DNA of 64,000 nt from Escherichia coli (GTDB lineage: Bacteria; Pseudomonadota; Gammaproteobacteria; Enterobacterales; Enterobacteriaceae). The stretch lies in NCBI RefSeq assembly GCF_003019035.1, contig NZ_CP027447.1. The stretch is one strand, 5' to 3'. Made by a program: the position numbers and the translations under genes. Of this stretch, positions 5,024 to 64,000 are shown piece by piece. Position 1 is the stretch's first letter. Every line of letters starts with the position of its first letter. The notes beneath the pieces are model-generated. The model was not told the origin of the DNA. It saw only the letters and a program-made list of their open reading frames with translations, and did no database searches.

Positions 5024-5273
5024 GAGTAGGCTTCGCTTTGTTGTGTTGTGTGGCAGCTGATTTTTGCGCGCTGCTTCTGTGAACAGTTATTAAGCGGGCT
5101 TTTCGTTTTCGTCTATCTCTTTAGCTACCGGTCAGACCATTTTTTTTCCAGCTCTGTGACCTTGTCTTGGTTAACTTAATGTTAAATTGATGTAACATAA
5201 TCACTTACGTGATGTGCGTGTTTTGCGAGTTAAGAACAGAAAAATTGGTCCTACCTGTGCACGAGGTCCGGGA
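5024..5273. promoter_or_regulatory. glcD / glcC divergent promoter-operator region
   Basis: 250-bp non-coding interval between divergently oriented glcD and glcC; regulatory role inferred from position. Confidence 0.5.
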
Positions 5274-6044: not shown

Positions 6045-7187
6045 TCAAATCTGCTTTTCATACAATCGGTAACGCTTGTACGGCTCCGCCCCAATGCGTT
6101 CCAGCATGTTATTCATGCCTGTATTGGTTTCGAGGATCCATGACATCTCCAGCGCATCGATCTTCCGGCGGGCAAACGGATCGCGTAAGGCTTCAATCAA
6201 TAACAACGCAATCACCGGGCCGATGCGGCTGAACTGATACTCGTCCCGCACGCCCATCAGCGGTACTCGCGCAGTTCGCACACCGCTGACTTTTAAACGC
6301 CACAGCAATTTTGCCCAGCCGAAGGGAAAGAGCGATCCGTTCAGATCGGCAATCGCCTCGTTGATGTTTGGCAAGCCGACAATAAACGCGCAGGGTGCAG
6401 AATCAATCTCAGCGATGTAGATCATATCGTCCGGCACCAGATATTTAAGTTGGTCGCCCATGGTCGCGAATTCATGTTCGGTAAACGGCACAAATCCCCA
6501 GTTGTGCTGCCAGCCAGAATTGAAAATCTCACGCAGGATCTGCATCTCTTCGGCAAACCGCTGGCGATTGATGCAGCGAATGGTCACCTTCTTACGCACC
6601 TGATCCATCAGTTTTTTTAGCGCCGGAGAGAAAGTGAGATCGGTTCGCTGCATCCACCACGCCAGTAAATCAATGCCTTTGTGATAACCCAATTGTTCAA
6701 TATGCGCGGCATACCACGGTTTACCGTGCGGCATCATCGCACAGGGTGGTGTATCGAAACCTTCAATCAGTAATCCGCTTTCCTGATTGATATTCAGGCT
6801 GAAAGGCCCGCTGATCTTACTTGCACCTTGTGACTTCAACCACGCTTCCGCTGCGCCAAACAACGCGGCAAAAACCTGCGGATCATCAATGGCGTCAATC
6901 ATGCCGAAATGACCGGTATCTTTGCCGTAACGCTCGCGGTGCAAGGTATCTATTTGCGCGGTAATACGCCCAACTATCTGCCCCGCTTTTTTTGCCACCC
7001 ACGCCTGCCAGATGATATGGTCCGTCCCCGGATTTTTCGCAGACAAATGCTCGTTGCGTTCAATGAATAAAGGGGGTATCCAGTTTGGATCGTCGGGATA
7101 AAGTGATGACGGAAAAGCGATAAATGCCTTAAGGTCATTTTTATTAATTACTTTTTCAATTTTAATCATCAGCAGATCGCATTCCAT
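6045..7187 (-). CDS. yghO: GNAT-like N-acyltransferase, candidate amine N-acylating enzyme (possible ceramide-synthase analogue)
   Basis: 380-aa ORF recognised as YghO; acyl-CoA N-acyltransferase-like fold assignment is from memory of the family, not a motif I can point to; start could be 7169 (MIKIEKV). Confidence 0.7.
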   Translation of the reverse strand: MECDLLMIKIEKVINKNDLKAFIAFPSSLYPDDPNWIPPLFIERNEHLSAKNPGTDHIIWQAWVAKKAGQIVGRITAQIDTLHRERYGKDTGHFGMIDAIDDPQVFAALFGAAEAWLKSQGASKISGPFSLNINQESGLLIEGFDTPPCAMMPHGKPWYAAHIEQLGYHKGIDLLAWWMQRTDLTFSPALKKLMDQVRKKVTIRCINRQRFAEEMQILREIFNSGWQHNWGFVPFTEHEFATMGDQLKYLVPDDMIYIAEIDSAPCAFIVGLPNINEAIADLNGSLFPFGWAKLLWRLKVSGVRTARVPLMGVRDEYQFSRIGPVIALLLIEALRDPFARRKIDALEMSWILETNTGMNNMLERIGAEPYKRYRLYEKQI

Positions 7188-7530
7188 AGTTCTGTGGGTA
7201 ACAAATAATTAACGGTGACAAACAGGTTGCAACAGCAACGAACGGCACCTTAATAATCAACCCAATGAATACAAACGACGAATAAATAGTATTTATTAAT
7301 GATTACGATAAGGTCAGAGACTACACAGAAGCGCCACAATGCCTTTTGTCGATTTAAGGCGACCGGACAAGGCTCCTTCTTAATATATTCATAAATTAAA
7401 TATCATTCACAATAAAAACAAAAAACTCAAATTCATTATTTAAATCAATGTTCATTTTCACACTGATGAAAATACTATCTCATTTATCTTTTATGCCTAT
7501 ATAATCCACCGCATTATTGTCATTTTATTT
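7188..7530. promoter_or_regulatory. AT-rich divergent control region between yghO and the lipid-synthesis operon
   Basis: 343-bp strongly AT-rich non-coding interval (runs such as aataaatagtatttattaatgatta) between divergent genes. Confidence 0.45.
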
Positions 7531-9282
7531 TTGATATCCAATTTTTTCGTGGTGTATATGTCTAATAAAATCTTTACGCATTCCCTACCTATGCGCTATG
7601 CCGATTTTCCAACGCTGGTTGATGCTTTGGACTATGCCGCTCTGAGTAGCGCTGGAATGAATTTTTATGACAGACGTTGCCAACTTGAAGATCAACTGGA
7701 ATATCAGACGTTAAAAGCGCGTGCCGAAGCTGGTGCGAAGCGGTTGTTATCGCTGAACCTGAAAAAAGGCGATCGCGTGGCACTGATTGCCGAAACCAGT
7801 AGCGGGTTCGTAGAGGCTTTTTTTGCCTGCCAGTATGCCGGCTTAGTCGCCGTCCCGTTGGCGATTCCCATGGGCGTCGGTCAGCGGGATTCCTGGAGCG
7901 CCAAGCTGCAGGGTTTACTGGCAAGTTGCCAGCCCGCAGCCATTATCACTGGTGATGAGTGGTTGCCACTGGTCAATGCCGCGACGCATAACAACAACCC
8001 CGAATTACATGTTTTAAGCCACGCCTGGTTTAAGGCATTACCGGAAGCCGATGTTGCGCTCCAGCGTCCAGTTCCGAACGATATCGCCTACCTCCAGTAC
8101 ACCTCCGGCAGCACCCGTTTTCCCCGTGGCGTCATTATCACCCATCGCGAAGTGATGGCTAATCTACGTGCTATAAGCCACGATGGCATAAAATTACGCC
8201 CTGGCGACCGCTGCGTCTCCTGGCTGCCTTTCTACCATGATATGGGACTGGTCGGCTTTCTCCTGACCCCCGTCGCCACGCAGCTTTCAGTAGATTATTT
8301 GCGCACTCAGGATTTTGCCATGCGTCCTCTGCAATGGCTTAAATTGATCAGTAAAAATCGCGGCACCGTTTCCGTTGCGCCGCCGTTTGGCTATGAATTG
8401 TGCCAGCGCCGCGTGAATGAAAAAGATCTCGCTGAACTGGATCTTTCCTGCTGGCGCGTCGCTGGTATTGGTGCAGAACCCATCTCCGCAGAACAACTCC
8501 ATCAATTCGCTGAATGTTTCCGTCAGGTCAACTTTGACGATAAAACTTTCATGCCGTGCTACGGACTGGCAGAAAATGCGCTGGCTGTCAGCTTCTCTGA
8601 TGAAGCTTCCGGGGTTGTGGTTAACGAAGTGGATCGCGACATCCTCGAATATCAGGGCAAAGCCGTCGCGCCGGATGCTGAAACACGCGCCGTATCGACT
8701 TTCGTCAACTGCGGTAAAGCGTTGCCGGAACATGGCATTGAAATCCGCAATGAAGCAGGTATACCTGTCGCGGAACGTGTGGTAGGCCATATTTGCATCT
8801 CCGGCCCTAGCCTGATGAGCGGTTACTTTGGCGACCAGATTTCACAAGACGAGATTGCCGCGACGGGCTGGTTAGACACCGGCGACCTCGGTTATCTGCT
8901 GGACGGTTATCTGTATGTCACCGGACGCATTAAAGATCTGATTATTATTCGTGGCCGTAATATCTGGCCGCAGGATATTGAATATATTGCGGAACAGGAA
9001 CCGGAAATTCATTCTGGCGATGCGATTGCTTTTGTTACCGCCCAGGAAAAAATCATTTTGCAGATCCAGTGTCGGATCAGCGATGAAGAACGTCGCGGGC
9101 AGCTTATCCACGCGCTGGCAGCACGGATCCAAAGCGAATTTGGTGTGACCGCGGCTATCGATCTGTTGCCGCCCCACAGTATTCCCCGAACGTCCTCCGG
9201 CAAGCCTGCCCGTGCGGAAGCGAAAAAACGTTATCAGAAGGCTTATGCTGCAAGCCTTCATGTGCAGGAATCCCTGGCATGA
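7531..9282 (+). CDS. fatty acyl-AMP ligase / acyl-ACP synthetase (AMP-binding superfamily)
   Basis: 583-aa ORF with adenylation motif YTSGSTRFPRGV and C-terminal SSGKPAR-type motif; start may be 7558 or 7591; stop overlaps next start (ATGA). Confidence 0.8.
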   Translation: MISNFFVVYMSNKIFTHSLPMRYADFPTLVDALDYAALSSAGMNFYDRRCQLEDQLEYQTLKARAEAGAKRLLSLNLKKGDRVALIAETSSGFVEAFFACQYAGLVAVPLAIPMGVGQRDSWSAKLQGLLASCQPAAIITGDEWLPLVNAATHNNNPELHVLSHAWFKALPEADVALQRPVPNDIAYLQYTSGSTRFPRGVIITHREVMANLRAISHDGIKLRPGDRCVSWLPFYHDMGLVGFLLTPVATQLSVDYLRTQDFAMRPLQWLKLISKNRGTVSVAPPFGYELCQRRVNEKDLAELDLSCWRVAGIGAEPISAEQLHQFAECFRQVNFDDKTFMPCYGLAENALAVSFSDEASGVVVNEVDRDILEYQGKAVAPDAETRAVSTFVNCGKALPEHGIEIRNEAGIPVAERVVGHICISGPSLMSGYFGDQISQDEIAATGWLDTGDLGYLLDGYLYVTGRIKDLIIIRGRNIWPQDIEYIAEQEPEIHSGDAIAFVTAQEKIILQIQCRISDEERRGQLIHALAARIQSEFGVTAAIDLLPPHSIPRTSSGKPARAEAKKRYQKAYAASLHVQESLA

Positions 9283-10193
9283 ATCAAACTGTCGCGGTGA
9301 CGGGCGCTACCGGGTTTATCGGTAAATATATTATCGATAACCTGCTCGCCCGCGGCTTTCACGTTCGCGCATTGACGCGTACTGCCCGTGCTCACGTCAA
9401 TGACAATCTCATCTGGGTGCGCGGTTCTCTGGAAGATACTCATTCACTTAGCGAACTGGTTGCCGGAGCCAGCGTGGTGGTCCATTGCGCCGGGCAAGTG
9501 CGCGGGCACAAAGAAGAGATTTTTACCCGCTGTAACGTTGACGGCAGCCTGCGACTGATGCAAGCGGCAAAAGAGAGCGGCTTTTGCCAACGTTTTCTGT
9601 TTATCTCTTCGCTGGCGGCGCGCCATCCCGAACTCTCCTGGTACGCAAATTCCAAACACGTCGCCGAACAACGGCTGACTGCAATGGCTGATGAAATTAC
9701 GCTGGGCGTTTTTCGCCCGACAGCCGTGTATGGTCCCGGCGATAAAGAGTTAAAACCGCTGTTTGACTGGATGCTGCGCGGCCTGCTGCCACGACTTGGT
9801 GCGCCAGATACACAACTCTCTTTCCTGCACGTCACCGATTTTGCGCAAGCAGTGGGTCAGTGGTTAAGCGCCGAAACTGTACAGACGCAAACCTATGAAT
9901 TATGCGATGGCGTCGCTGGCGGCTATGACTGGCAACGCGTACGACAGCTTGCCGCCGAAGCCCGTTGTGGTTCTGTGCAGATGGTTGGCATTCCTCTGCC
10001 GGTACTCACCTGCCTTGCGGATATCAGTACTGCGTTGAGTCGCCTGGCAGGTAAAGAACCTATGCTGACCCGCTCGAAAATTCGTGAATTAACCCACGCC
10101 GACTGGTCGGCAAATAATAACCGTATTTCTGAAGATATTAATTGGTTTCCCGGGATTAGCCTGGAACACGCATTACGCAACGGGCTATTTTGA
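9279..10193 (+). CDS. NAD(P)-dependent epimerase/dehydratase-fold reductase
   Basis: 304-aa ORF; N-terminal Rossmann motif VTGATGFIGKYI; translationally coupled to upstream ligase. Confidence 0.8.
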   Translation: MNQTVAVTGATGFIGKYIIDNLLARGFHVRALTRTARAHVNDNLIWVRGSLEDTHSLSELVAGASVVVHCAGQVRGHKEEIFTRCNVDGSLRLMQAAKESGFCQRFLFISSLAARHPELSWYANSKHVAEQRLTAMADEITLGVFRPTAVYGPGDKELKPLFDWMLRGLLPRLGAPDTQLSFLHVTDFAQAVGQWLSAETVQTQTYELCDGVAGGYDWQRVRQLAAEARCGSVQMVGIPLPVLTCLADISTALSRLAGKEPMLTRSKIRELTHADWSANNNRISEDINWFPGISLEHALRNGLF

Positions 10194-10224: not shown

Positions 10225-10473
10225 ATGGTAAATCGTGAAATAGTAATGGATTACATCCTTTCCTGTTTACAGGATTTGGTCGAAAACGGTGTGGAAATTA
10301 AGCCCAACAGCGATCTCGTCAACGATCTTGGCCTGGAGTCGATCAAAGTGATGGATCTCTTAATGATGCTGGAAGACAGATTCGATATTTCCATTCCTAT
10401 TAATATTCTGCTGGATGTCAAAACCCCTGTGCAATTAATGGAAACTCTACTTCCATGGCTGGAGAATAAATAA
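10225..10473 (+). CDS. acyl carrier protein (dedicated)
   Basis: 82-aa acidic ORF with phosphopantetheine-attachment-type motif DLGLESIKVMDL; stop overlaps next start (TAATG); start may be 10246. Confidence 0.75.
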   Translation: MVNREIVMDYILSCLQDLVENGVEIKPNSDLVNDLGLESIKVMDLLMMLEDRFDISIPINILLDVKTPVQLMETLLPWLENK

Positions 10474-11645
10474 TGGGGCTATACGATAAATATGCGCGCC
10501 TTGCTGGCGAGCGACTGCAATTTAGTGACAACGGGTTAACGCCGTTTGGTACCTGTATTGATGAAGTGTATTCCGCCACCGAAGGTCGGATCGGCAATAA
10601 AAAAGTGATTCTGGCCGGGACCAATAATTATCTCGGTTTAACCTTTAATCATGATGCCATCGCCGAAGGTCAGGCAGCGTTAGCGGCCCAAGGCACCGGC
10701 ACCACCGGTTCTCGTATGGCTAATGGCAGTTATGCGCCGCATCTGGCGTTAGAGAAAGAGATTGCCGAGTTTTTCAATCGCCCTACCGCTATCGTTTTTT
10801 CAACCGGTTATACCGCTAATTTAGGCGTCATCAGCGCACTTGCCGACCATAACGCCGTGGTGTTACTGGATGCCGACAGCCACGCCAGTATTTATGACGC
10901 CTGTTCTCTCGGTGGCGCGGAAATTATTCGTTTCCGCCATAACGATGCTAAAGATCTGGAACGGCGCATGGTTCGCCTCGGTGAACGGGCGAAAGAGGCG
11001 ATTATCATCGTTGAGGGCATCTACAGCATGCTCGGTGACGTTGCGCCGTTAGCGGAAATTGTTGATATCAAACGTCGTCTCGGTGGTTATTTGATTGTCG
11101 ATGAAGCGCATTCGTTTGGCGTGTTAGGCGCAACGGGGCGCGGACTGGCTGAAGCCGTTGGCGTTGAAGATGATGTGGATATTATCGTTGGTACTTTCAG
11201 TAAAAGTCTGGCCTCGATTGGCGGTTTTGCTGTCGGTTCGGAAGCGATGGAAGTGTTGCGCTACGGCAGCCGCCCGTATATTTTTACCGCCTCTCCTTCT
11301 CCGTCCTGCATTGCGACCGTGCGCTCGTCGTTAAGAACCATTGCCTCACAACCAGAGCTGCGGCAAAAGCTGATGGATAACGCCAACCATCTGTATGACG
11401 GTCTGCAAAAACTGGGTTATGAGTTAAGTTCACATATTAGCCCGGTAGTGCCGGTAATAATCGGTTCGAAAGAGGACGGTTTACGCATCTGGCGCGAGCT
11501 TATTTCGCTGGGCGTTTATGTGAATCTTATCCTGCCACCTGCCGCGCCTGCAGGCATCACTCTGCTGCGCTGTAGCGTAAACGCTGCCCACAGTCATGAG
11601 CAAATCGATGCCATCATTCAGGCATTTGCTACTCTGAAGCAGTAA
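10473..11645 (+). CDS. PLP-dependent alpha-oxoamine synthase (serine palmitoyltransferase / KBL / BioF family)
   Basis: 390-aa ORF; class-II aminotransferase fold with PLP-lysine motif GTFSKSLASIGGF; K-12 bioF and kbl are located elsewhere. Confidence 0.8.
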   Translation: MGLYDKYARLAGERLQFSDNGLTPFGTCIDEVYSATEGRIGNKKVILAGTNNYLGLTFNHDAIAEGQAALAAQGTGTTGSRMANGSYAPHLALEKEIAEFFNRPTAIVFSTGYTANLGVISALADHNAVVLLDADSHASIYDACSLGGAEIIRFRHNDAKDLERRMVRLGERAKEAIIIVEGIYSMLGDVAPLAEIVDIKRRLGGYLIVDEAHSFGVLGATGRGLAEAVGVEDDVDIIVGTFSKSLASIGGFAVGSEAMEVLRYGSRPYIFTASPSPSCIATVRSSLRTIASQPELRQKLMDNANHLYDGLQKLGYELSSHISPVVPVIIGSKEDGLRIWRELISLGVYVNLILPPAAPAGITLLRCSVNAAHSHEQIDAIIQAFATLKQ

Positions 11646-18151: not shown

Positions 18152-18324
18152 GAAAAACCCGGCAGCAAATAATGTATTGAATATTACGTGGTCCGTGCTC
18201 AGAATATCCGTTCAACCTTATTGTGACAATGGTTAATTGTGACATTGACCTGAATTACGCTTTCATAAAAACATATTAACCAAATAAATATTTTTAATGG
18301 ATATTTAAATTAAAGGATATATTC

Positions 18325-20565: not shown

Positions 20566-20806
20566 ATATTAGATTACGCCATTTTGAATTTACGAACGGA
20601 CGCATTATCAGTGACTTTAACGGCATGGGCAAAGTGAAATATCATTTTTTAACGATAAAAAGCGTGTTATTTCTTGTGTATCAGACAATAAGCATTCATT
20701 CAAAATCTTTAGAAATAATCAAAACACAAGTATTCCACTGGTTAATATATTCATATATTAAATAAATAAATATTGGAATATATAAATGTTGAATGTTTTG
20801 ATTAAT

Positions 20807-20841
20807 CCCCGAACTGATTATTCTTCATAATCAGTACGGGG
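20807..20841 (-). terminator. imperfect stem-loop downstream of gss
   Basis: ccccgaactgattat / ataatcagtacgggg inverted repeat just 3' of the gss stop. Confidence 0.35.
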
Positions 20842-20856
20842 TTGCTACAACATGTA

Positions 20857-45307: not shown

Positions 45308-46057
45308 ATGGAACAGGTTATTACAAAGCGCCGCTATTACGATATTGGTCTACAGATTGAAGAGCTGCTGTATTCAGGCGTATTTAAGGCCGGAGAACGC
45401 TTACCTTCAGAACGTGAACTGAGCGAGCGGTTTAATACCAGCCGAACTACCATTCGTGAAGCCATCATTATGCTGGAACTGAAAGGCGTATTGAATGTGA
45501 AGCAAGGGTCAGGGATTTTCTTTGTCGACTCCACCGATAAGCTCAACCAGAAATCATTAATGCCCTATTCAGAAATTGGCCCGTTTGAACTGTTGCAGGC
45601 GCGTCAGGTGATTGAGAGCAATATTACTGGTTTTGCAGCCAGCCAGATTAGCTTTAACGAGTTACAAGAGTTAAAGAAAATCATTAGCTTGCAGGAAAAC
45701 GCTATCGCTGCGGAAAGTGATAAATTTGAAGACCTGGATCACCGATTTCATAGCATTATTGCCGAAGCGACGCAAAATCGGGTACTCATCAAACAAGCCG
45801 CTGAATTATGGCGGGCAGTGCGCACAGAAAACCCCCGCTGGAAGAAACTTAACTACAAGTACCTGCATGAAAAGCATTTGCGTCTGCAATGGCTGGAAGA
45901 TCACCGGGCTATTTTCCTGGCTCTGCAACAGAAAGATTCAGAGCTCGCCAGGGAAGCGTCCTGGAGACATCTGGAAAACAGCAAAAATGAACTGATCAAA
46001 ATCTTCAAACAAGACGCTTCCATCAGCGATTTTGATGACTTTTTCTTCGCTCGTTAA
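45308..46057 (+). CDS. GntR/FadR-family transcriptional regulator
   Basis: 249-aa ORF; N-terminal winged HTH (ERLPSERELSERFNTSRTTIREA), FCD-type C-terminal domain. Confidence 0.8.
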   Translation: MEQVITKRRYYDIGLQIEELLYSGVFKAGERLPSERELSERFNTSRTTIREAIIMLELKGVLNVKQGSGIFFVDSTDKLNQKSLMPYSEIGPFELLQARQVIESNITGFAASQISFNELQELKKIISLQENAIAAESDKFEDLDHRFHSIIAEATQNRVLIKQAAELWRAVRTENPRWKKLNYKYLHEKHLRLQWLEDHRAIFLALQQKDSELAREASWRHLENSKNELIKIFKQDASISDFDDFFFAR

Positions 46058-46379
46058 CCTTCATTAGTCCAGAGCTGGCGTGAAAAATGACGCTGGCTCT
46101 GCGTTGCACCCTCCACTGGTATACGCTCTCTTCTCAATTGGTCTAATAAATCGATTATCATCAGATATCTTAGATTAGCGGCAATTATCCCAAAAACTGA
46201 CTTCTAAAAAACTTTCCTTTCATTTTATTCATATAACTCATTGATACAGATATAAATAACGCCTTGTTGTTCTGTTTCGTACTTTTACCTTTCTCTGCAA
46301 GCGTGATGCATCTCTCTGTTTTTGGTCTAGTGAATTATGTAAATTGGTATACACACAAGCCACCAGGAGTAAGAGCATA

Positions 46380-47852
46380 ATGTCAGGGAACGAAAGTATC
46401 GATGCCGCCCACTATGATCAGGTAACCACCTGGCCTCGGGGCGGGTTACAGGCAGATATTGTCCATATTGGTTTTGGCGCTTTTCATCGCGGACACCAGG
46501 CTGTCTACACGGATCTCACTAATCAACTTTCGGACACCCGCTGGGGGATCTTTGAGATCAACCTGTTTGGTGATGCTCAACTGATCGAAAACTTAAATGC
46601 GCAAAATGGGCTGTTTTCGGTTGTGGAAACATCTGCATCGCAATCTACCTCACGCCTTGTGCGTTCGGTGGCTGGCGGTATTCATACCCCCAGAGATGGC
46701 ATTGCCGCAGCAATCCATAAACTGGCTGAACCTCAGGTAAAAATCGTTTCATTAACCATCACCGAGAAAGGTTATTGCCTCGATCCGCAAACACGTTCAC
46801 TTGATCTCACCAATGGATTAATCCAACACGATCTACAAAACCCGGATGCGCCTCTGTCAGCTATTGGCGTGATCGTCTGTGCTTTGCAACAACGTAAAGC
46901 GACAGGACTCGCCGCTTTTAGTGTGCTCTCCTGTGACAACTTGCCAGACAATGGGCATCTGACGCGCAATGCCGTTCTCGGTTTTGCCCGACAACTGGAC
47001 CAGCCCCTGGCTCAGTGGATCGAAGAAAATGTCTCATTTCCAGGCACGATGGTAGATCGCATTGTTCCGGCAATGACTGAATCGCAATTCGCCTTACTGG
47101 AAACGAAAACCGGTTATGCCGATCCCTGCGGGATCGTCTGCGAATCATTTCGTCAGTGGGTGATCGAAGATAATTTTGTGCGCGGACGACCACAATGGGA
47201 TAAAGCCGGCGCGATGTTTGTCAGCAATGTTCAGCCTTATGAAGAGATGAAGTTACGCATGTTAAATGGTAGCCATTCATTTCTGGCTTATAACGGCTCG
47301 CTGGCAGGCTATGAGTTTATCTGGCAATGCATGGAAGACGCTAATTTTCGTTCCATTACCCACCAACTGATGATTAATGAACAAGCCCGAACACTTAATC
47401 CAGACTTAAATATCAACATCCAGGAATACGCCGACCTGTTAATTGAACGCTTTAGCAACCGTAACGTTGCACACCGTACCGGGCAAATAGCCATGGACGG
47501 TTCACAAAAGCTTCCCCAGCGTGCACTGACGCCCTGGCTGAAATTACATCAGCAAAAGCAAAACAATGCTGTTCTGTCACTGCTCGTTGCTGGTTGGTTG
47601 CATTATGTCATTGATGCTGTTGAGAAAAGCCAGTCTGTCGCTGATCCAATGAATGACCAATTTCAGGCGCTAATAAAGGAACAACAAGACGCATGGCAAC
47701 AGGCGCTCGCATTACTGCACCTTAGCGCCATATTTGGTGATTTAAGCAACCATCAGCCATTTATAAATGAAATAAAAATCGCCTTTGCGAATATAAAAAA
47801 CAAAGGCATCAAGGCCACCATCAGCCAATTATTATCGGATGAGCAGAAATGA
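46380..47852 (+). CDS. mannitol-dehydrogenase-family oxidoreductase (fructuronate/mannonate-reductase-like)
   Basis: Start moved from TTG at 46344 to ATG at 46380 preceded by aggag RBS (MSGNESIDAAHY); long-chain mannitol DH family features. Confidence 0.75.
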   Translation: MSGNESIDAAHYDQVTTWPRGGLQADIVHIGFGAFHRGHQAVYTDLTNQLSDTRWGIFEINLFGDAQLIENLNAQNGLFSVVETSASQSTSRLVRSVAGGIHTPRDGIAAAIHKLAEPQVKIVSLTITEKGYCLDPQTRSLDLTNGLIQHDLQNPDAPLSAIGVIVCALQQRKATGLAAFSVLSCDNLPDNGHLTRNAVLGFARQLDQPLAQWIEENVSFPGTMVDRIVPAMTESQFALLETKTGYADPCGIVCESFRQWVIEDNFVRGRPQWDKAGAMFVSNVQPYEEMKLRMLNGSHSFLAYNGSLAGYEFIWQCMEDANFRSITHQLMINEQARTLNPDLNINIQEYADLLIERFSNRNVAHRTGQIAMDGSQKLPQRALTPWLKLHQQKQNNAVLSLLVAGWLHYVIDAVEKSQSVADPMNDQFQALIKEQQDAWQQALALLHLSAIFGDLSNHQPFINEIKIAFANIKNKGIKATISQLLSDEQK

Positions 47853-48865
47853 AAACATTAATTTGTCAGCAGCCTGGCGTTATGGAATATGTGGAAAAGG
47901 ATATTCCCACACCAGCAGATAATGAAGTGCTGTTAAAAATCAAAGCTGTGGGTATTTGTGGTACTGATATTCACGCTTTTGCCGGCAGACAGCCTTTTTT
48001 TAGCTACCCACGTGTATTAGGTCATGAAATATGCGCCGAAGCGGTTTCGCGAGGCAGCCAGTGCCAAACAGCACAATCAGGCCAGCGCTATTCCGTCATC
48101 CCATGCATTCCGTGTGGCGAGTGCGCAGCCTGTCGGGAAGAGAAAACGAACTGCTGCGAACGTGTTTCGCTGTATGGCGTGCATCAGGATGGGGGTTTTA
48201 GTGAGTACCTTGCGGTACGTGAAGACAACCTTGTGCCTCTCCCTGACGAGGTCAGCGACAGTGCCGGAGCATTGGTTGAATGTTTCGCCATTGGTGCACA
48301 TGCCGTTCGTCGGGCAGAGATCAAGGCTGAACAAAACGTACTGGTGGTTGGCGCTGGGCCAATCGGTCTGGCTACCGCGGCCATCGCCAGGGCTAAAGGG
48401 GCGCATGTTGTTGTTGCTGATATTGATTGTCAACGTCGCCAGCACGTTGTGGATCATCTGGCAATTAATGTCTTCGACCCAACACAGGAAGGTTTTATTG
48501 CCGCGCTTAGTGAAGTATTTGGCGGCGAACTGGCTTGCGTAGTCCTGGATGCGACGGGAAATAAAGCTTCAATGAGTCATGATGTAAATCTTATTCGTCA
48601 TGGCGGCAAAATTGTTTTCATCGGTTTGTACATTGGTGAACTTGTTATTGACGATCCGACCTTCCATAAAAAAGAGACAACGTTACTCAGCAGCCGCAAT
48701 GCCACACGGGAAGATTTTGCGTTGGTGATTGAACTGATGCGCAGCAATAAAATTCACGAAAATTTAATGAAAAACCAGGCGTTCAATTTCTTTAGTGTTG
48801 GCGAAGATTACCAGCGTAACGTTGTAGAAAATAAAAATATGGTCAAGGGTGTGATCACTTTTTAA
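47849..48865 (+). CDS. Zn-dependent medium-chain alcohol/polyol dehydrogenase
   Basis: 338-aa ORF; catalytic GHE motif, structural-zinc Cys cluster CGECAACREEKTNCC, Rossmann GAGPIG; ATGA overlap with upstream gene. Confidence 0.8.
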   Translation: MKTLICQQPGVMEYVEKDIPTPADNEVLLKIKAVGICGTDIHAFAGRQPFFSYPRVLGHEICAEAVSRGSQCQTAQSGQRYSVIPCIPCGECAACREEKTNCCERVSLYGVHQDGGFSEYLAVREDNLVPLPDEVSDSAGALVECFAIGAHAVRRAEIKAEQNVLVVGAGPIGLATAAIARAKGAHVVVADIDCQRRQHVVDHLAINVFDPTQEGFIAALSEVFGGELACVVLDATGNKASMSHDVNLIRHGGKIVFIGLYIGELVIDDPTFHKKETTLLSSRNATREDFALVIELMRSNKIHENLMKNQAFNFFSVGEDYQRNVVENKNMVKGVITF

Positions 48866-48875
48866 GGGAACAAAT

Positions 48876-49886
48876 ATGACAACTGTTTATGTCAGTGAAG
48901 AAAATTTAAAATCACTGGTGCACCACAAATTACATACCGCCGGGCTGGATACCGACACCACACAACAGGTGACAGATGTTTTAGTACATGCCGATATTAC
49001 AGGTGTGCATTCACATGGTGTTATGCGTGTCGAACATTATTGCACCCGCCTTGCTGCCGGAGGGTTAAATAAAGCCCCGCAGTTTAGCATTGAGCAAATT
49101 TCACCGTCAGTGGCCATTCTCGACTCTGACGACGGAATGGGGCATTCCGCATTAATTAGCGCCACTGAGCACGCTATTAAACTGGCCCAGCAAGAGGGCC
49201 TCGGTTTTGTTAGCGTTAAAAACACGTCTCACTGTGGTGCGTTATCTTATTTTGCAGAGATGATCACCAACAAAGGGTTGGTTGCTATCGTAATGACGCA
49301 AACCGATACCTGTGTGGCTCCCCATGGCGGCGCCGAGCGCTTTTTGGGAACTAACCCCATCGCCTTTGGTTTCCCGGTGGAAAACAGCCATCCGATGATT
49401 GTTGATATGGCGACCAGTGCCACGGCTTTCGGCAAAATACTTCATGCAAAGGAAACCGGAAAACATATTGGTGAAGGGCTGGCGATAGATAAAAACGGTT
49501 ATGGCACCACTGATCCGTATAAGATTGAAAACCTGCTACCTTTCGGCCAACACAAAGGTTCAGGCATTGCACTGGCTATTGATGCACTGACTGGCGTGCT
49601 GATGAATGCGAATTTTGGCAACCATATTGTTCGCATGTATGGTGATTATGACAAGATGCGTAAGCTGGCAAGTTTGGTTATTGCCATCGATCCGAAAAAG
49701 CTCGGCAATCCTGTTTTTGCAAAAACCATGGCGCAAATGGTCACGGAGTTGCATGCCGTTAAACCGGCTCCCGGTATCGAAAAAGTGTTAGCGCCGAACG
49801 ATCCGCAAATGCACTACAAAGAAAAATGCCAACAGGAAGGTATTCCGGTTCCGGCAGGAATATTCCATTATCTGGCAGAGAATTAA
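48876..49886 (+). CDS. Ldh2-family (malate/L-lactate dehydrogenase 2-type) oxidoreductase
   Basis: 336-aa ORF with Ldh2-family features (HSHGVMRVEHY, GTNPIAFG). Confidence 0.75.
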   Translation: MTTVYVSEENLKSLVHHKLHTAGLDTDTTQQVTDVLVHADITGVHSHGVMRVEHYCTRLAAGGLNKAPQFSIEQISPSVAILDSDDGMGHSALISATEHAIKLAQQEGLGFVSVKNTSHCGALSYFAEMITNKGLVAIVMTQTDTCVAPHGGAERFLGTNPIAFGFPVENSHPMIVDMATSATAFGKILHAKETGKHIGEGLAIDKNGYGTTDPYKIENLLPFGQHKGSGIALAIDALTGVLMNANFGNHIVRMYGDYDKMRKLASLVIAIDPKKLGNPVFAKTMAQMVTELHAVKPAPGIEKVLAPNDPQMHYKEKCQQEGIPVPAGIFHYLAEN

Positions 49887-49958
49887 TCACTACTTTTTAT
49901 TATAACGATAGAAAAGCGCTGTATTTATCGTTTCTGTTATATTAACCAGGAGCAAGAT

Positions 49959-50942
49959 ATGAAAGCACTTCGTCCTCTGACGGCATCGCTTATGCTGTTA
50001 ACCAGTTGTTTTTTAGTTTCCAATACCACACTGGCAAAAACAACATTAAAACTCAGTCATAATCAGGATAAAAGCCATGCTGTCCATAAAGCATTAAGCT
50101 ATTTAGCGGATAAAACCAAAGAGTATTCTAATGGTGAATTAGTTATTCGCATTTACCCAAATGCGACATTAGGTAATGAGCGTGAATCACTGGAATTAAT
50201 GAACTCCGGTGCATTACAGATGGTTAAGGTTAATGCTGCATCACTAGAATCATTTGCCCCGGATTACAGCCTTTTCAGTCTGCCGTTCTTATTTCGCGAC
50301 CGTGATCACTATTATCGTGTTCTGCAAAGTGATTTAGGTAAAAAAATACTTAAGTCATCAGAAAGCAAAGGTTTTGTTGGTATTACGTACTATGACGGCG
50401 GTGCGAGAAGTTTTTATTCCAATAAACCGATTACAAAACCTGAAGATTTAGCGGGAATGAAAATCAGGGTTCAACAAAGCCCCAGCGCCATTGCAATGAT
50501 GAAAGCACTCGGTGGTGTCGCTACCCCGATGGCGCAAGGCGAACTCTACACCGCACTTCAGCAAGGTGTGGTTGATGGCGGAGAGAACAATACCGTTGTC
50601 TATTCCGATATGCGTCACGCCGAAGTCGCAAAAGTCTATTCACGTGATGAACACACCATGGTACCTGATGTGTTAATTATCAGCACCGACGTGTTGAATA
50701 AACTTGGTGATAAAGAGCGCACGGCATTATTAAAAGCAGCCGATGAGTCAATGATGCAGATGAAGGACGTCATCTGGCCTGCGGCTGAAAAAGAAGCCTA
50801 CGACAAAATGAAAGGGATGAACGCAACAGTTGTTGATGTTGATAAATCCGCTTTCAAAGAACGCGTCAAACCGTTATACGATGAATTCAAGGCGAAAGAT
50901 GCACAATCCGCCAAAAACCTTGAGCAAGTAGAAAGTATGTAA
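49959..50942 (+). CDS. TRAP transporter substrate-binding protein (DctP family)
   Basis: 327-aa ORF with signal peptide and DctP-type sequence. Confidence 0.8.
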   Translation: MKALRPLTASLMLLTSCFLVSNTTLAKTTLKLSHNQDKSHAVHKALSYLADKTKEYSNGELVIRIYPNATLGNERESLELMNSGALQMVKVNAASLESFAPDYSLFSLPFLFRDRDHYYRVLQSDLGKKILKSSESKGFVGITYYDGGARSFYSNKPITKPEDLAGMKIRVQQSPSAIAMMKALGGVATPMAQGELYTALQQGVVDGGENNTVVYSDMRHAEVAKVYSRDEHTMVPDVLIISTDVLNKLGDKERTALLKAADESMMQMKDVIWPAAEKEAYDKMKGMNATVVDVDKSAFKERVKPLYDEFKAKDAQSAKNLEQVESM

Positions 50943-50983
50943 CCCTAATGGGCAGGTAATTCCTGCCTTTTCATGGAAGACTT

Positions 50984-51466
50984 ATGCGAACACTCACTCA
51001 TATTCTTAATAAGATCCTTGCCGGATGTTGCCGCATTATTCTCGCCATTATGGTGTTCTGCGTAACCTGGCAAGTTATTGCACGTTTTATTTTTAACGCT
51101 CCCAGCACTGTGCTTGATGAGTTCACCCAGATTTTATTTATGTGGATGATTTTACTTGGTGGTGTATATACTGCGGGGTTAAAAAAACATCTGGCCATTG
51201 ATTTGTTGGCTCAAAAACTTCCGGCTGCATCTGTTCTGACGCTTGACTGTTTTATCCAAATTATTATTACGGTCTTTGCGGTTATTTTCATGATCTATGG
51301 CGGGAATATTGTTGTTGAAAAAGCACAACATGTTGGACAAATCTCTCCTGTATTAAAATGGCCGATGGATAAGGTTTATTGGGTTATGCCTGCCAGTGGG
51401 CTTATTCTGGTCTGGTATTCAGTGATGAATATCATCGACAACTATCGCAAATGGAATTCTCATTAA
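50984..51466 (+). CDS. TRAP transporter small permease (DctQ family)
   Basis: 160-aa ORF with four predicted TM helices. Confidence 0.75.
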   Translation: MRTLTHILNKILAGCCRIILAIMVFCVTWQVIARFIFNAPSTVLDEFTQILFMWMILLGGVYTAGLKKHLAIDLLAQKLPAASVLTLDCFIQIIITVFAVIFMIYGGNIVVEKAQHVGQISPVLKWPMDKVYWVMPASGLILVWYSVMNIIDNYRKWNSH

Positions 51467-51476
51467 CGAGGGAAGT

Positions 51477-52781
51477 ATGGACATTGAATATATCTACCCC
51501 GTCTTAATTTTATTTGGCAGTTTTGCCGTCATGCTGGCAATCGGTGTGCCAATTACTTTTGCGATTGGTCTTTCTTCGCTGTTATCTATTATTACTGCCT
51601 TACCACCCGATGCCGCCATTTCTGTGATTTCGCAAAAGATGACTGTGGGGCTGGATGGCTTTACGCTATTAGCCATTCCCTTCTTCGTGTTAGCCGGAAA
51701 CATTATGAATACCGGTGGTATAGCCAGACGACTGGTTAACCTGGCGCAAGCATTAGTTGGGCGTCTTCCTGGCTCACTGGCTCATTGTAATATCCTCGCG
51801 AATACACTGTTTGGTGCGATTTCAGGTTCAGCCGTTGCGTCAGCCGCAGCGGTAGGTGGGATTATGTCACCACTGCAAGAAAAAGAGGGCTATGATCCGG
51901 CGTTCTCTGCGGCGGTTAATATTGCCTCTGCCCCCATTGGCCTGATGATCCCACCGAGCAATGTGTTGATTGTTTATTCCCTCGCCAGTGGCGGGACTTC
52001 TGTCGCTGCGTTGTTCTTAGCTGGATATCTGCCGGGCATCCTCACCGCTGTTGCCTTAATGTTTGTAGCTGCACTTTATGCCCGACGTCACCATTACCCA
52101 GTGGCCGAACGCATCAATTACCGTCAGTTTTTACAGGTATTCCGCGAATCAATTCCTAGCCTGATGCTTATTTTTATCATTATTGGCGGTATTATCGCAG
52201 GGGTATTTACGCCCACAGAAGCATCAGCAATAGCGGTAATTTATAGTTTAGCCCTGGCGATGATTTACCGGGAAATCACCATCAAGAAACTCAATGACAT
52301 CCTGTTAGACTCCGTAGTAACCAGTTCAATTGTTCTGTTGCTGGTAGGCTGCTCGATGGGGATGTCATGGGCCATGACGAATGCTGATGTTCCTGAGTTG
52401 ATCAACGAACTGATTACCCGCGTTTCGGATAACAAATGGGTCATTCTATTTATTATTAATATCATTCTGTTGATCGTCGGTACCTTTATGGATATCACGC
52501 CGGCGATCCTGATATTTACACCTATTTTCCTGCCGATCGCCCAGCATCTGGGGATTGATCCGATTCACTTCGGCATCATTATGGTTTTCAACTTAACCAT
52601 TGGCCTTTGCACACCACCTGTCGGCACCATTCTGTTTGTGGGGTGCAGCATTGGTAAGGTCAGTATCGACAGGGCAATAAAACCATTACTGCCGATGTTT
52701 CTGGCATTGTTTGTAGTAATGGCAATTATTTGTTATTTCCCGCAGCTTAGTCTGATGCTGCCAGGATTATTTTCGACCTGA
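51477..52781 (+). CDS. TRAP transporter large permease (DctM family)
   Basis: 434-aa polytopic ORF. Confidence 0.8.
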   Translation: MDIEYIYPVLILFGSFAVMLAIGVPITFAIGLSSLLSIITALPPDAAISVISQKMTVGLDGFTLLAIPFFVLAGNIMNTGGIARRLVNLAQALVGRLPGSLAHCNILANTLFGAISGSAVASAAAVGGIMSPLQEKEGYDPAFSAAVNIASAPIGLMIPPSNVLIVYSLASGGTSVAALFLAGYLPGILTAVALMFVAALYARRHHYPVAERINYRQFLQVFRESIPSLMLIFIIIGGIIAGVFTPTEASAIAVIYSLALAMIYREITIKKLNDILLDSVVTSSIVLLLVGCSMGMSWAMTNADVPELINELITRVSDNKWVILFIINIILLIVGTFMDITPAILIFTPIFLPIAQHLGIDPIHFGIIMVFNLTIGLCTPPVGTILFVGCSIGKVSIDRAIKPLLPMFLALFVVMAIICYFPQLSLMLPGLFST

Positions 52782-59313: not shown

Positions 59314-59421
59314 GGTATTCCTTACCGGAGAAATTATAAGCCCAACAACAATACGCCTGTGGCATTGTTCGCTCAAACTTATCGCGAGTGATTTGGCTCA
59401 CACTCCGGTAAAGATTCCCCA

Positions 59422-62513: not shown

Positions 62514-62550
62514 GTCTATGAGAGCCGTTAAAACGACTCTCATAGACTTT
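62514..62550 (+). terminator. rho-independent terminator downstream of qseC
   Basis: gtctatgagag / ctctcatagac 11-bp perfect stem followed by ttt. Confidence 0.6.
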
Positions 62551-62551
62551 A

Positions 62552-62884
62552 CTAATAGCAAAATATAAACCGTCCCCCAAAAAGCCACCAACCACAACCC
62601 AGACAAATAACGAGCGAGAATACATATAGCCAAAACTCGAACATTTCCCGCATAAAGAGTTTTCTTAAGATAAGAATAATAAGTGGCGTCAGAAGAAAAA
62701 ATGCTGCAATCATTGCTTGCAATATACGATCTTCGCCTGAAACGGAAGGTATACTGCAAATATTGTCTCCCGACTCAAGCATCCAGTCATACTTATTGAA
62801 AGCAAAAAAAGCATCTATTAACCAATAAGTAAGCATTATGTATAACAGAGCTTCAAATATTGTTTGAATTTTATGCTTTAACAT
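62552..62884 (-). CDS. ygiZ: small inner membrane protein
   Basis: 110-aa hydrophobic ORF. Confidence 0.8.
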   Translation of the reverse strand: MLKHKIQTIFEALLYIMLTYWLIDAFFAFNKYDWMLESGDNICSIPSVSGEDRILQAMIAAFFLLTPLIILILRKLFMREMFEFWLYVFSLVICLGCGWWLFGGRFIFCY

Positions 62885-63241
62885 ATGTTAGCACTCTCTA
62901 AAAAAGTCCAGTCGGAGATCTGGTTTTCGATACCCTCCAGTAAATCTATTTAAAATAATCTGCGTAACACGCTGATATTTTCATTTTTAGTTATTCAACA
63001 CCACAATTATCAACTCGCAGAAAGTCCACACCAACGTTGTAAATTAACCCTGTGCTAGTTGGAATGATGAGAAATTGCTATCAGTATTGTCATTTTCAGA
63101 AAATATTTATCCCGCATCGGTGAATCAGAGCAAGATCAGACTTTTGCTAAATTCGCAAAAGACTTTGCACATTTTGCTAATTTCACCGTACCGCTCTGTG
63201 ACGTACTATAGTCGGTAAACGTCTCACCTTGAGGTTAAAAA

Positions 63242-63823
63242 ATGAGCAACATCCTGATTATCAACGGCGCGAAAAAATTCGCCCACTCCAATGGTCAACT
63301 GAACGACACCCTGACCGAAGTCGCGGATGGCACACTGCGCGACCTCGGGCATGATGTCCGCATCGTTCGCGCCGACAGCGACTACGATGTCAAAGCGGAA
63401 GTACAAAACTTTCTCTGGGCTGATGTGGTGATCTGGCAGATGCCAGGCTGGTGGATGGGCGCGCCGTGGACAGTGAAAAAATACATTGATGATGTATTCA
63501 CCGAAGGTCACGGGACGCTGTATGCCAGCGATGGTCGTACCCGCAAAGATCCGTCGAAAAAATACGGCTCCGGCGGCCTGGTACAGGGCAAAAAATATAT
63601 GCTTTCTCTGACCTGGAACGCACCAATGGAAGCCTTCACCGAAAAAGATCAGTTCTTCCACGGCGTTGGTGTTGACGGTGTGTACCTGCCGTTCCATAAA
63701 GCAAACCAATTCCTTGGCATGGAACCGCTGCCGACATTTATCGCTAATGACGTGATAAAAATGCCTGATGTTCCCCGCTATACTGAAGAATATCGCAAGC
63801 ATCTTGTGGAAATTTTTGGTTAA
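63242..63823 (+). CDS. mdaB: NADPH:quinone oxidoreductase
   Basis: 193-aa ORF MSNILIINGAKKFAHSNGQLN. Confidence 0.95.
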   Translation: MSNILIINGAKKFAHSNGQLNDTLTEVADGTLRDLGHDVRIVRADSDYDVKAEVQNFLWADVVIWQMPGWWMGAPWTVKKYIDDVFTEGHGTLYASDGRTRKDPSKKYGSGGLVQGKKYMLSLTWNAPMEAFTEKDQFFHGVGVDGVYLPFHKANQFLGMEPLPTFIANDVIKMPDVPRYTEEYRKHLVEIFG

Positions 63824-63853
63824 CTAGAGCTCTGGCTTTAGAAGGAGTTAACC

Positions 63854-64000
63854 ATGATTACAGTAATCGCAGAAATCCGTACTCGTCCTGGTCAACATCA
63901 CCGTCAGGCAGTGTTGGATCAGTTTGCTAAAATCGTTCCAACCGTACTGAAAGAAGAAGGTTGCCACGGCTATGCGCCAATGGTGGATTGCGCTGCTGGC
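63854..64000 (+). CDS. ygiN: quinol monooxygenase, 5' portion (gene continues past window end)
   Basis: ATG at 63854 preceded by ggagtt RBS; translation MITVIAEIRTRPGQHHRQAVLDQF. Confidence 0.85.
   Translation, partial: MITVIAEIRTRPGQHHRQAVLDQFAKIVPTVLKEEGCHGYAPMVDCAAG

Follow-up and report, generated by a model that had tools for sequence, protein, structure and literature searches.

What controls the ceramide genes of Escherichia coli, and where is that control exerted? Textbooks describe this species as lacking sphingolipids. A ceramide module that is intact and biochemically competent is carried by 76% of complete E. coli genomes and has been lost from K-12. The spacer between yghO and aasR is the place where expression of this module is decided, and the promoters and repressors acting there offer a practical route to the inducing condition. 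A sequence-only reading had described the spacer as a 343-bp, AT-rich divergent control region that may be bound by silencers such as H-NS and be silent in laboratory culture. This proposal was examined in a window of 64,000 nucleotides (64 kb), which is the E. coli chromosome segment from glcB to past qseC.

All five genes of the module are present and intact in the window, and they are intact in most genomes. To the left of the spacer, on the minus strand, lies yghO (6045 to 7187, with a probable start at ATG 7169), assigned as a GNAT-like N-acyltransferase. To its right, on the plus strand, lie aasR (7558 to 9282), encoding a fatty acyl-AMP ligase or specialised acyl-ACP synthetase; epi (9279 to 10193), encoding a cerR-like reductase of the NAD-dependent epimerase/dehydratase family; acpR (10225 to 10473), encoding a specialised acyl carrier protein; and spt (10473 to 11645), encoding serine palmitoyltransferase (599 bits with the NCBIfam equivalog model NF047599, whose cut-off is 500). 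The four plus-strand genes gave Pfam and NCBIfam matches. For yghO, neither Pfam nor NCBIfam gave a match in this window, and its homologues showed a faint match to Acetyltransf_1. Its assignment as an N-acyltransferase is based on this faint match, on the source names (N-acetyltransferase or GNAT family) and on its homology to Caulobacter CC_1154 (aca/bCerS) as given in PMC9386255. The functions of the genes are taken from publications. In BL21(DE3) the cluster comprises ECD_02850 (yghO, equated with aca, the CC_1154 homologue), ECD_02851 (aasR), ECD_02852 (epi), ECD_02853 (acpR) and ECD_02854 (spt) (Padilla-Gomez 2022, PMC9386255), and overexpression of E. coli AcpR, AasR and SPT yields active proteins (PMC9386255).

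The genes that border the spacer, yghO (minus strand) and the acyl-AMP ligase gene (plus strand), are divergent, and the description of the spacer as a divergent control region of a lipid (ceramide) locus was borne out. Beyond spt lie convergent genes (lptG/lptF-like, YtfJ-family, hypothetical, yghQ, yghR and yghS); these seven, from lptG-like through yghS, are transcribed from the opposite end of the locus. The spacer governs only yghO and the four-gene aasR-spt operon, and not the seven convergent genes. The lipid locus has one other promoter region, the divergent yghS-yghT spacer (18152 to 18324, GC 0.30).

The interval is long, as had been claimed, but it extends further to the right than the proposed limit of 7530, which is only an open reading frame boundary set by a TTG at 7531. 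The AasR N-terminus encoded from ATG 7558 (MSxxxxTHSLPMRYADFPTL; MSNKIFTHSLPMRYADFPTL in the window) is conserved across many genera, and the yghO-aasR interval therefore extends to 7557, giving 370 bp (7188 to 7557) with a GC content of 0.316. Since relatives carry an in-frame ATG at the place of E. coli GTG 7549, this alternative codon may be the true start, in which case the interval would end at 7548. The RefSeq aasR start at 7591 is probably too short. At the opposite end, YghO homologues are 374 amino acids long and begin at the second methionine, making ATG 7169 the probable start of yghO; positions 7170 to 7187 may thus also be non-coding, with the left limit possibly at 7170. Homologues have nothing that corresponds to the first six codons (MECDLL) of yghO as annotated in E. 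coli. In some strains (BL21(DE3) and DFL.5) a 5-bp tandem duplication, GTTCT, adjoins the annotated yghO start (window position 7188).

The marked AT-richness of the interval was confirmed. The GC content of 7188 to 7530 is 0.318, compared with 0.51 for the whole window, and only 0.43% of all 343-bp segments in the 64 kb reach its AT-richness. When intergenic regions were ranked, with gene coordinates carried over from an annotated genome, the yghO-aasR spacer was the longest of the 39 regions of at least 20 bp and ranked third in AT-richness among the 15 longer than 150 bp, behind the pitB-gss (GC 0.289) and yghS-yghT (GC 0.301) spacers. Composition was uneven along its length, with GC contents of 0.32 at 7200 to 7310, 0.51 at 7311 to 7380 and 0.22 at 7381 to 7557. 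AT content is well above the window average, at 68% over the 370 bp and 78% over the last 177 bp, and both A/T tracts that had been singled out are present, at 7281 to 7313 and 7412 to 7450. The AT-richness and length of the spacer are clearly non-random, yet they lie in the tail of a normal distribution and not outside it. Further AT-rich stretches of the window are the pitB-gss spacer (20566 to 20856, GC 0.29) and a trough near ygiZ (62527 to 62868) at the window end.

Conservation of the spacer was mapped in an alignment of 11 Escherichia sequences with the window as reference, including four divergent lineages whose yghO and aasR agree with the window at just 66-86% of 4-fold degenerate sites. 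The strongest conservation was found at 7470 to 7557, read on the plus strand and comprising the predicted core promoter and an AU-rich 5' leader. This 88-bp block is 97.7-100% identical in all Escherichia aligned, with a P of about 1e-7 for the most divergent strain by a binomial estimate from alignment counts. A second conserved block, at 7377 to 7412, coincides with the best minus-strand promoter candidate. Together with this block, 7230 to 7258 and 7284 to 7310 are moderately to well conserved, and the first A/T run (7281 to 7313) is moderately conserved. The GC-richer centre (7311 to 7376) is hypervariable or replaced, with 46-57% identity in two lineages. The most AT-rich tract (7381 to 7469), which includes the A/T run at 7412 to 7450, is 74-89% identical in divergent clades and is variable among Escherichia at 7413 to 7437; some strains (BL21(DE3) and DFL.5) have one additional A in the A-run at about 7419. 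A palindrome considered as an operator, ATTTTCA-N6-TGAAAAT (7454 to 7473), was set aside as probably not one, because its left arm varies among strains. The spacer stays AT-rich even where its sequence differs among Escherichia. The alignment shows clear purifying selection on 7470 to 7557 and on 7377 to 7412 across Escherichia clades. The strict conservation of 7470 to 7557 goes beyond what composition-driven H-NS binding needs and points to RNA polymerase and a sequence-specific factor, or to a leader function.

The conserved block next to aasR contains a perfect -10 hexamer, TATAAT, on the plus strand at 7500 to 7505. It gave the top plus-strand score in the promoter scan, at the 99.999th percentile of the window, and is invariant in all Escherichia compared. 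The hexamer at the -35 position (7477 to 7482, ATCTCA) matches the consensus at just 3 of 6 bases. The predicted transcription start of the aasR operon falls near 7511 to 7513; rightward transcription would most likely begin about 7 nt past the TATAAT, without a usable -35. The best minus-strand score was obtained for a candidate with a -35 of TTGTGA (7412 to 7407) and a -10 of TATATT (7387 to 7382). Leftward transcription would most likely start from this conserved block, with a predicted start near 7375, leaving a yghO leader of about 190-205 nt. Position weights for the scan were derived from approximate hexamer frequencies; a stricter consensus scan missed both predicted promoters because it needed at least 4 of 6 matches in each hexamer. 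Across the spacer, 22 promoter-like sites exceeded the window's 99.9th percentile, compared with 3.7 expected. With divergent flanking genes and -10/-35-like elements on both strands inside conserved blocks, the spacer has the predicted features of a sigma-70 divergent region. It is a real divergent promoter region of an ordinary, known kind, situated in a little-studied ceramide locus. A candidate sigma-54 promoter seen by eye near 7236 to 7250 (GGTGCC-N-TTGCT) was rejected, as its spacing is one base off.

The missing -35 of the rightward promoter and the near-invariance of the 40 bp upstream make it probable that this promoter depends on a sequence-specific activator or some other bound factor. 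Such a dependence could explain a silent operon with H-NS uninvolved: the promoter would be off in the laboratory because it lacks a -35 and because its activator, or the activator's signal, is missing, and the AT-richness would represent UP-element-like DNA, factor sites and the usual non-coding AT bias. We hold this explanation to be possible, with a minority share of the probability. The combination of a perfect -10 with a 3/6 -35 argues for it, as does the near-invariance of the 88 bp leading up to the start codon, a constraint that binding driven by composition would not call for.

The same block would also supply the leader of the rightward transcript, predicted to be AU-rich, about 45 nt long and equipped with a weak ribosome-binding site. 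A cis-acting RNA leader, acting as a riboswitch, attenuator or thermosensor, could in principle be the main control, with DNA composition secondary. Across genera, the leader ahead of the aasR start codon is conserved and the remaining spacer is unalignable. In the predicted fold of this leader, the start-codon region is base-paired with codons 10-14. The leader is, however, short and AU-rich, and when both predicted leaders were folded alongside shuffled controls, neither did better than its controls (aasR leader, z = -1.9; 227-nt yghO leader, z = 0.0). A search of 6800 to 7900 against Rfam gave no match at E values up to 1, and none of the long spacers of eight related loci reached a gathering score. 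Control by an RNA leader is very improbable. Pluralibacter gergoviae has a fluoride riboswitch (RF01734, 45 bits) some 4 kb away from the module, unrelated to the spacer. Small open reading frames in the E. coli spacer were chance ones only, of 21-32 amino acids, and its repeats were short and of low identity; the long spacers of other genera contained no conserved open reading frame.

YghO homologues at about 80% identity are widespread in Enterobacterales, and 34 yghO loci, one genome per species, were compared. The aasR-epi-acpR-spt genes are divergent from yghO in 32 of the 34 loci, and the surrounding genes differ. The pairing was found in Escherichia, Shimwellia, Citrobacter, Pluralibacter, Pseudocitrobacter, Serratia, Klebsiella indica, Erwinia and Rosenbergiella, and further in Rahnella, Cedecea, Sodalis, Hafnia and a Pseudomonas MAG, amounting to at least 12 enterobacterial genera overall. 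In all compared loci the spacer is 288-1113 bp long, with a GC content of 0.26-0.43 that is always below that of the flanking genes. Since this arrangement recurs across genera in differing contexts, the divergent layout and the long AT-rich spacer are ancestral to the module, a mobile set of five genes, and did not arise by local chance. No regulator gene accompanied the module in the loci of other genera, which fits control by global factors.

Outside Escherichia, the only part of the spacer that BLAST could align was the stretch of about 75 nt leading up to the aasR start. A 16-nt motif, TTTACCACTTAATGCT, recurs in the spacers of other genera: with at most 3 mismatches allowed, it was present in 19 of 32 loci, representing at least 11 genera, and it lay on the aasR strand every time. 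Several of the long spacers have a conserved promoter-like block about 50 nt beyond the motif. An oriented element of this kind resembles a specific operator and so argues for the activator-dependent explanation. At the same threshold, no match to TTTACCACTTAATGCT was found in the whole 64-kb window or in any Escherichia spacer, so that no putative activator site can be pointed to in E. coli, which weighs against that explanation. At most, a gapped relic, GCCACAATGCCTTTT, is present at 7334 to 7348 in the hypervariable centre. Owing to the absence of TTTACCACTTAATGCT, Escherichia seems to hold a shortened, rewired control region. An apparent 27-nt similarity between the centre of the E. coli spacer and Serratia liquefaciens was dropped, as it was not found in other genera.

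The absence of TTTACCACTTAATGCT can also be taken as a sign of decay. On this account the locus is weakly expressed, its low expression is constitutive and its AT-richness is mutational drift; the Escherichia spacer would be a shortened, degraded form of a 630-1113-bp ancestral spacer, no longer with a key cis element or with either Shine-Dalgarno sequence. In keeping with this, the Shine-Dalgarno sequences of yghO and aasR are weak or mis-spaced in Escherichia, whereas most other genera show an AAGG suitably positioned 5 nt upstream of yghO, and the centre of the Escherichia spacer is hypervariable. Inactivation has also recurred. The spacer was found at a coverage of at least 80% in 4131 of 5426 complete E. 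coli genomes, about 24% being without most of it. In K-12, the locus is deleted from the 5' end of yghO (codon ~14) to the middle of yghQ, adjoining an IS5. The pig isolate 2015-01-2097 has an IS1 and foreign genes in place of yghO and the whole spacer up to 7588, and strain DA33135 has a spacer identical to that of the window and an internal stop in aasR. Against decay stand the purifying selection on the 88-bp block and on 7377 to 7412 in Escherichia, the integrity of the five genes in the window and in most genomes, and the functional E. coli enzymes (PMC9386255). We consider decay unlikely, although less so than control by an RNA leader.

The inactivations in K-12, the pig isolate and DA33135 are repeated and independent. 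Strain differences were also seen elsewhere in the window. A 7.5-kb accessory block at 45308 to 52781, between ygiQ and ftsP, encodes a TRAP transporter, three dehydrogenases and a regulator of the FCD family; BL21(DE3) and strain 042 have ygiQ directly next to ftsP. The window lacks the mqsR-mqsA toxin-antitoxin pair that BL21(DE3) carries between ygiS and ygiV, and just a 108-bp spacer (59314 to 59421) is found instead. The last 1.1 kb (62863 to 64000) gave no alignment with DA33135, which has hypothetical and Hcp (type VI secretion) genes after ygiZ.

The spacer was scanned for sites of known regulators with about 14 motifs, using consensus sequences. Matches to Fur, PhoB, CRP, FNR, IHF, sigma-E, PhoP, Lrp, RcsAB, PmrA, CpxR and OmpR were at chance level in the spacer, and the A/T run at 7281 to 7313 contained no convincing Fur, Lrp or CpxR site by these consensus sequences. 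An ArcA-like repeat, GTTAATTATTTGTTA, was found on the minus strand at 7199 to 7213, just upstream of the yghO start, with two GTTA elements 11 bp apart and 13 of 15 matches to the ArcA consensus. Its P is about 0.01 before correction for the roughly 14 motifs tried, and its first GTTA is altered in three divergent clades; as a putative ArcA site it is a lead only. The sole other 13/15 match in the window, GTTAACTTAATGTTA (5170 to 5184), lies in the glcD-glcC spacer of the glc operon, which is ArcA-repressed, and it served as an informal positive control. For the activator-dependent explanation these scans are unfavourable: no known factor consensus fits convincingly, and the ArcA-like repeat is nominal in significance and not in all clades.

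Published work on BL21(DE3) bears on the proposed silence. With empty vectors, this strain yields no 3-oxo-sphinganine and its extracts have no SPT activity (PMC9386255). Plasmid-borne E. coli SPT alone yields nothing; product needs plasmid-borne AasR, AcpR and SPT together, and the chromosomal aasR fails to complement plasmid-borne acpR and spt (PMC9386255). The absence of product and activity indicates, indirectly, that expression of the chromosomal operon is not appreciable in complex medium (LB) at 30 C. When given 3-oxo-sphinganine, BL21(DE3) forms sphinganine-like and ceramide-like products, possibly via the chromosomal epi and yghO (PMC9386255), which suggests that silence may be incomplete. 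The earlier suggestion of laboratory silence thus agrees with the lack of product and SPT activity, with the reservation that epi and yghO may have basal activity in this strain.

The sequence indicators for H-NS are mixed. AT content and the density of promoter-like sites speak for it; dense promoter-like hexamers are typical of H-NS-bound DNA. A high-affinity H-NS motif, tCGATAAATT, was reportedly described by Lang in 2007, although such a motif is not obligatory for binding. Against this consensus, the best match in the spacer was 8 of 10 bases, occurred only once (7388 to 7397; TCGATAAATT is the motif) and is about what chance would give; the window as a whole contained 86 such matches, compared with 67 expected by chance. 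The coding DNA of the module has a normal GC content of 0.50-0.57, and an extended H-NS filament over the locus is therefore unlikely. The missing high-affinity motif and the normal coding GC count towards an activator acting without H-NS. In the accessible part of the literature, no H-NS ChIP data were found for any strain carrying the locus, and no hns-mutant expression values for it. Strain 042 carries the locus as EC042_RS17425-17445, at 3,486,042 to 3,491,639 (3.49 Mb), and an RNA-seq table of its wild type and its hns, hns2, hns hns2 and hha hha2 mutants belongs to a source accessible in part (PMC5861252). H-NS silencing of the spacer is plausible, being compatible with its composition and with the BL21(DE3) data. 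The hypothesis is reasonable, and stands neither confirmed nor favoured; a model with a specific regulator is at least as likely.

These findings can be accommodated by a reading that combines both kinds of control, namely that the spacer is a bidirectional promoter region of the ceramide module that needs an activator, is coated by H-NS/StpA and is off in ordinary culture. We put the probability of this combined reading at about 0.5. The spacer would drive yghO leftward and aasR-epi-acpR-spt rightward, and thereby the five genes of ceramide (dihydroceramide) synthesis. H-NS/StpA would coat the surrounding DNA, which is 68-78% AT, and hold the operon off in ordinary culture, and a signal would switch the operon on by displacing the silencer or by supplying the activator. 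More tentatively, 7470 to 7557 may be the putative docking site of a sequence-specific switch for a normally silent ceramide pathway, a switch that would have been rewired in Escherichia relative to the Enterobacterales carrying TTTACCACTTAATGCT. If this is true, the factor and signal acting at 7470 to 7557 would show when E. coli makes sphingolipids. That an AT-rich spacer may be bound by H-NS is a generic, expected inference; the advance lies in mapping which segments are constrained and which are free, in the comparison across genera and in the testable predictions that follow.

Among known systems, the closest is the ECD_02850-ECD_02854 cluster of BL21(DE3), which resembles the window in genes and gene order and has a spacer 98-99% identical to that of the window. 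The ceramide genes of Caulobacter crescentus, CC_1154 and CC_1162-CC_1165, provide the same five functions as the E. coli module; unlike E. coli yghO, the N-acyltransferase gene of Caulobacter is not a divergent neighbour of the operon. The papers on these two systems (Olea-Ozuna 2021; Padilla-Gomez 2022, PMC9386255) concern the enzymes only and leave the spacer, promoters and regulation undescribed. Within the window, the glcD-glcC spacer, 2 kb to the left, is likewise a single spacer shared by divergent units with promoter-like elements on both strands, and it is shorter and less AT-rich than the yghO-aasR spacer (250 versus 370 bp; GC 0.43 versus 0.32). AT-rich promoter regions of E. coli that are silenced by H-NS/StpA include those of proU, bgl, hns itself and LEE1. 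The spacer resembles regions of this type in AT content, in the density of promoter hexamers and in the lack of detectable product in LB (BL21(DE3)), and differs from them in having no high-affinity nucleation motif, in its flanks of normal GC content and in its 88-bp conserved core. Compared with ordinary divergent sigma-70 regions, it is distinguished by a long-spacer layout that is conserved across at least 12 genera.
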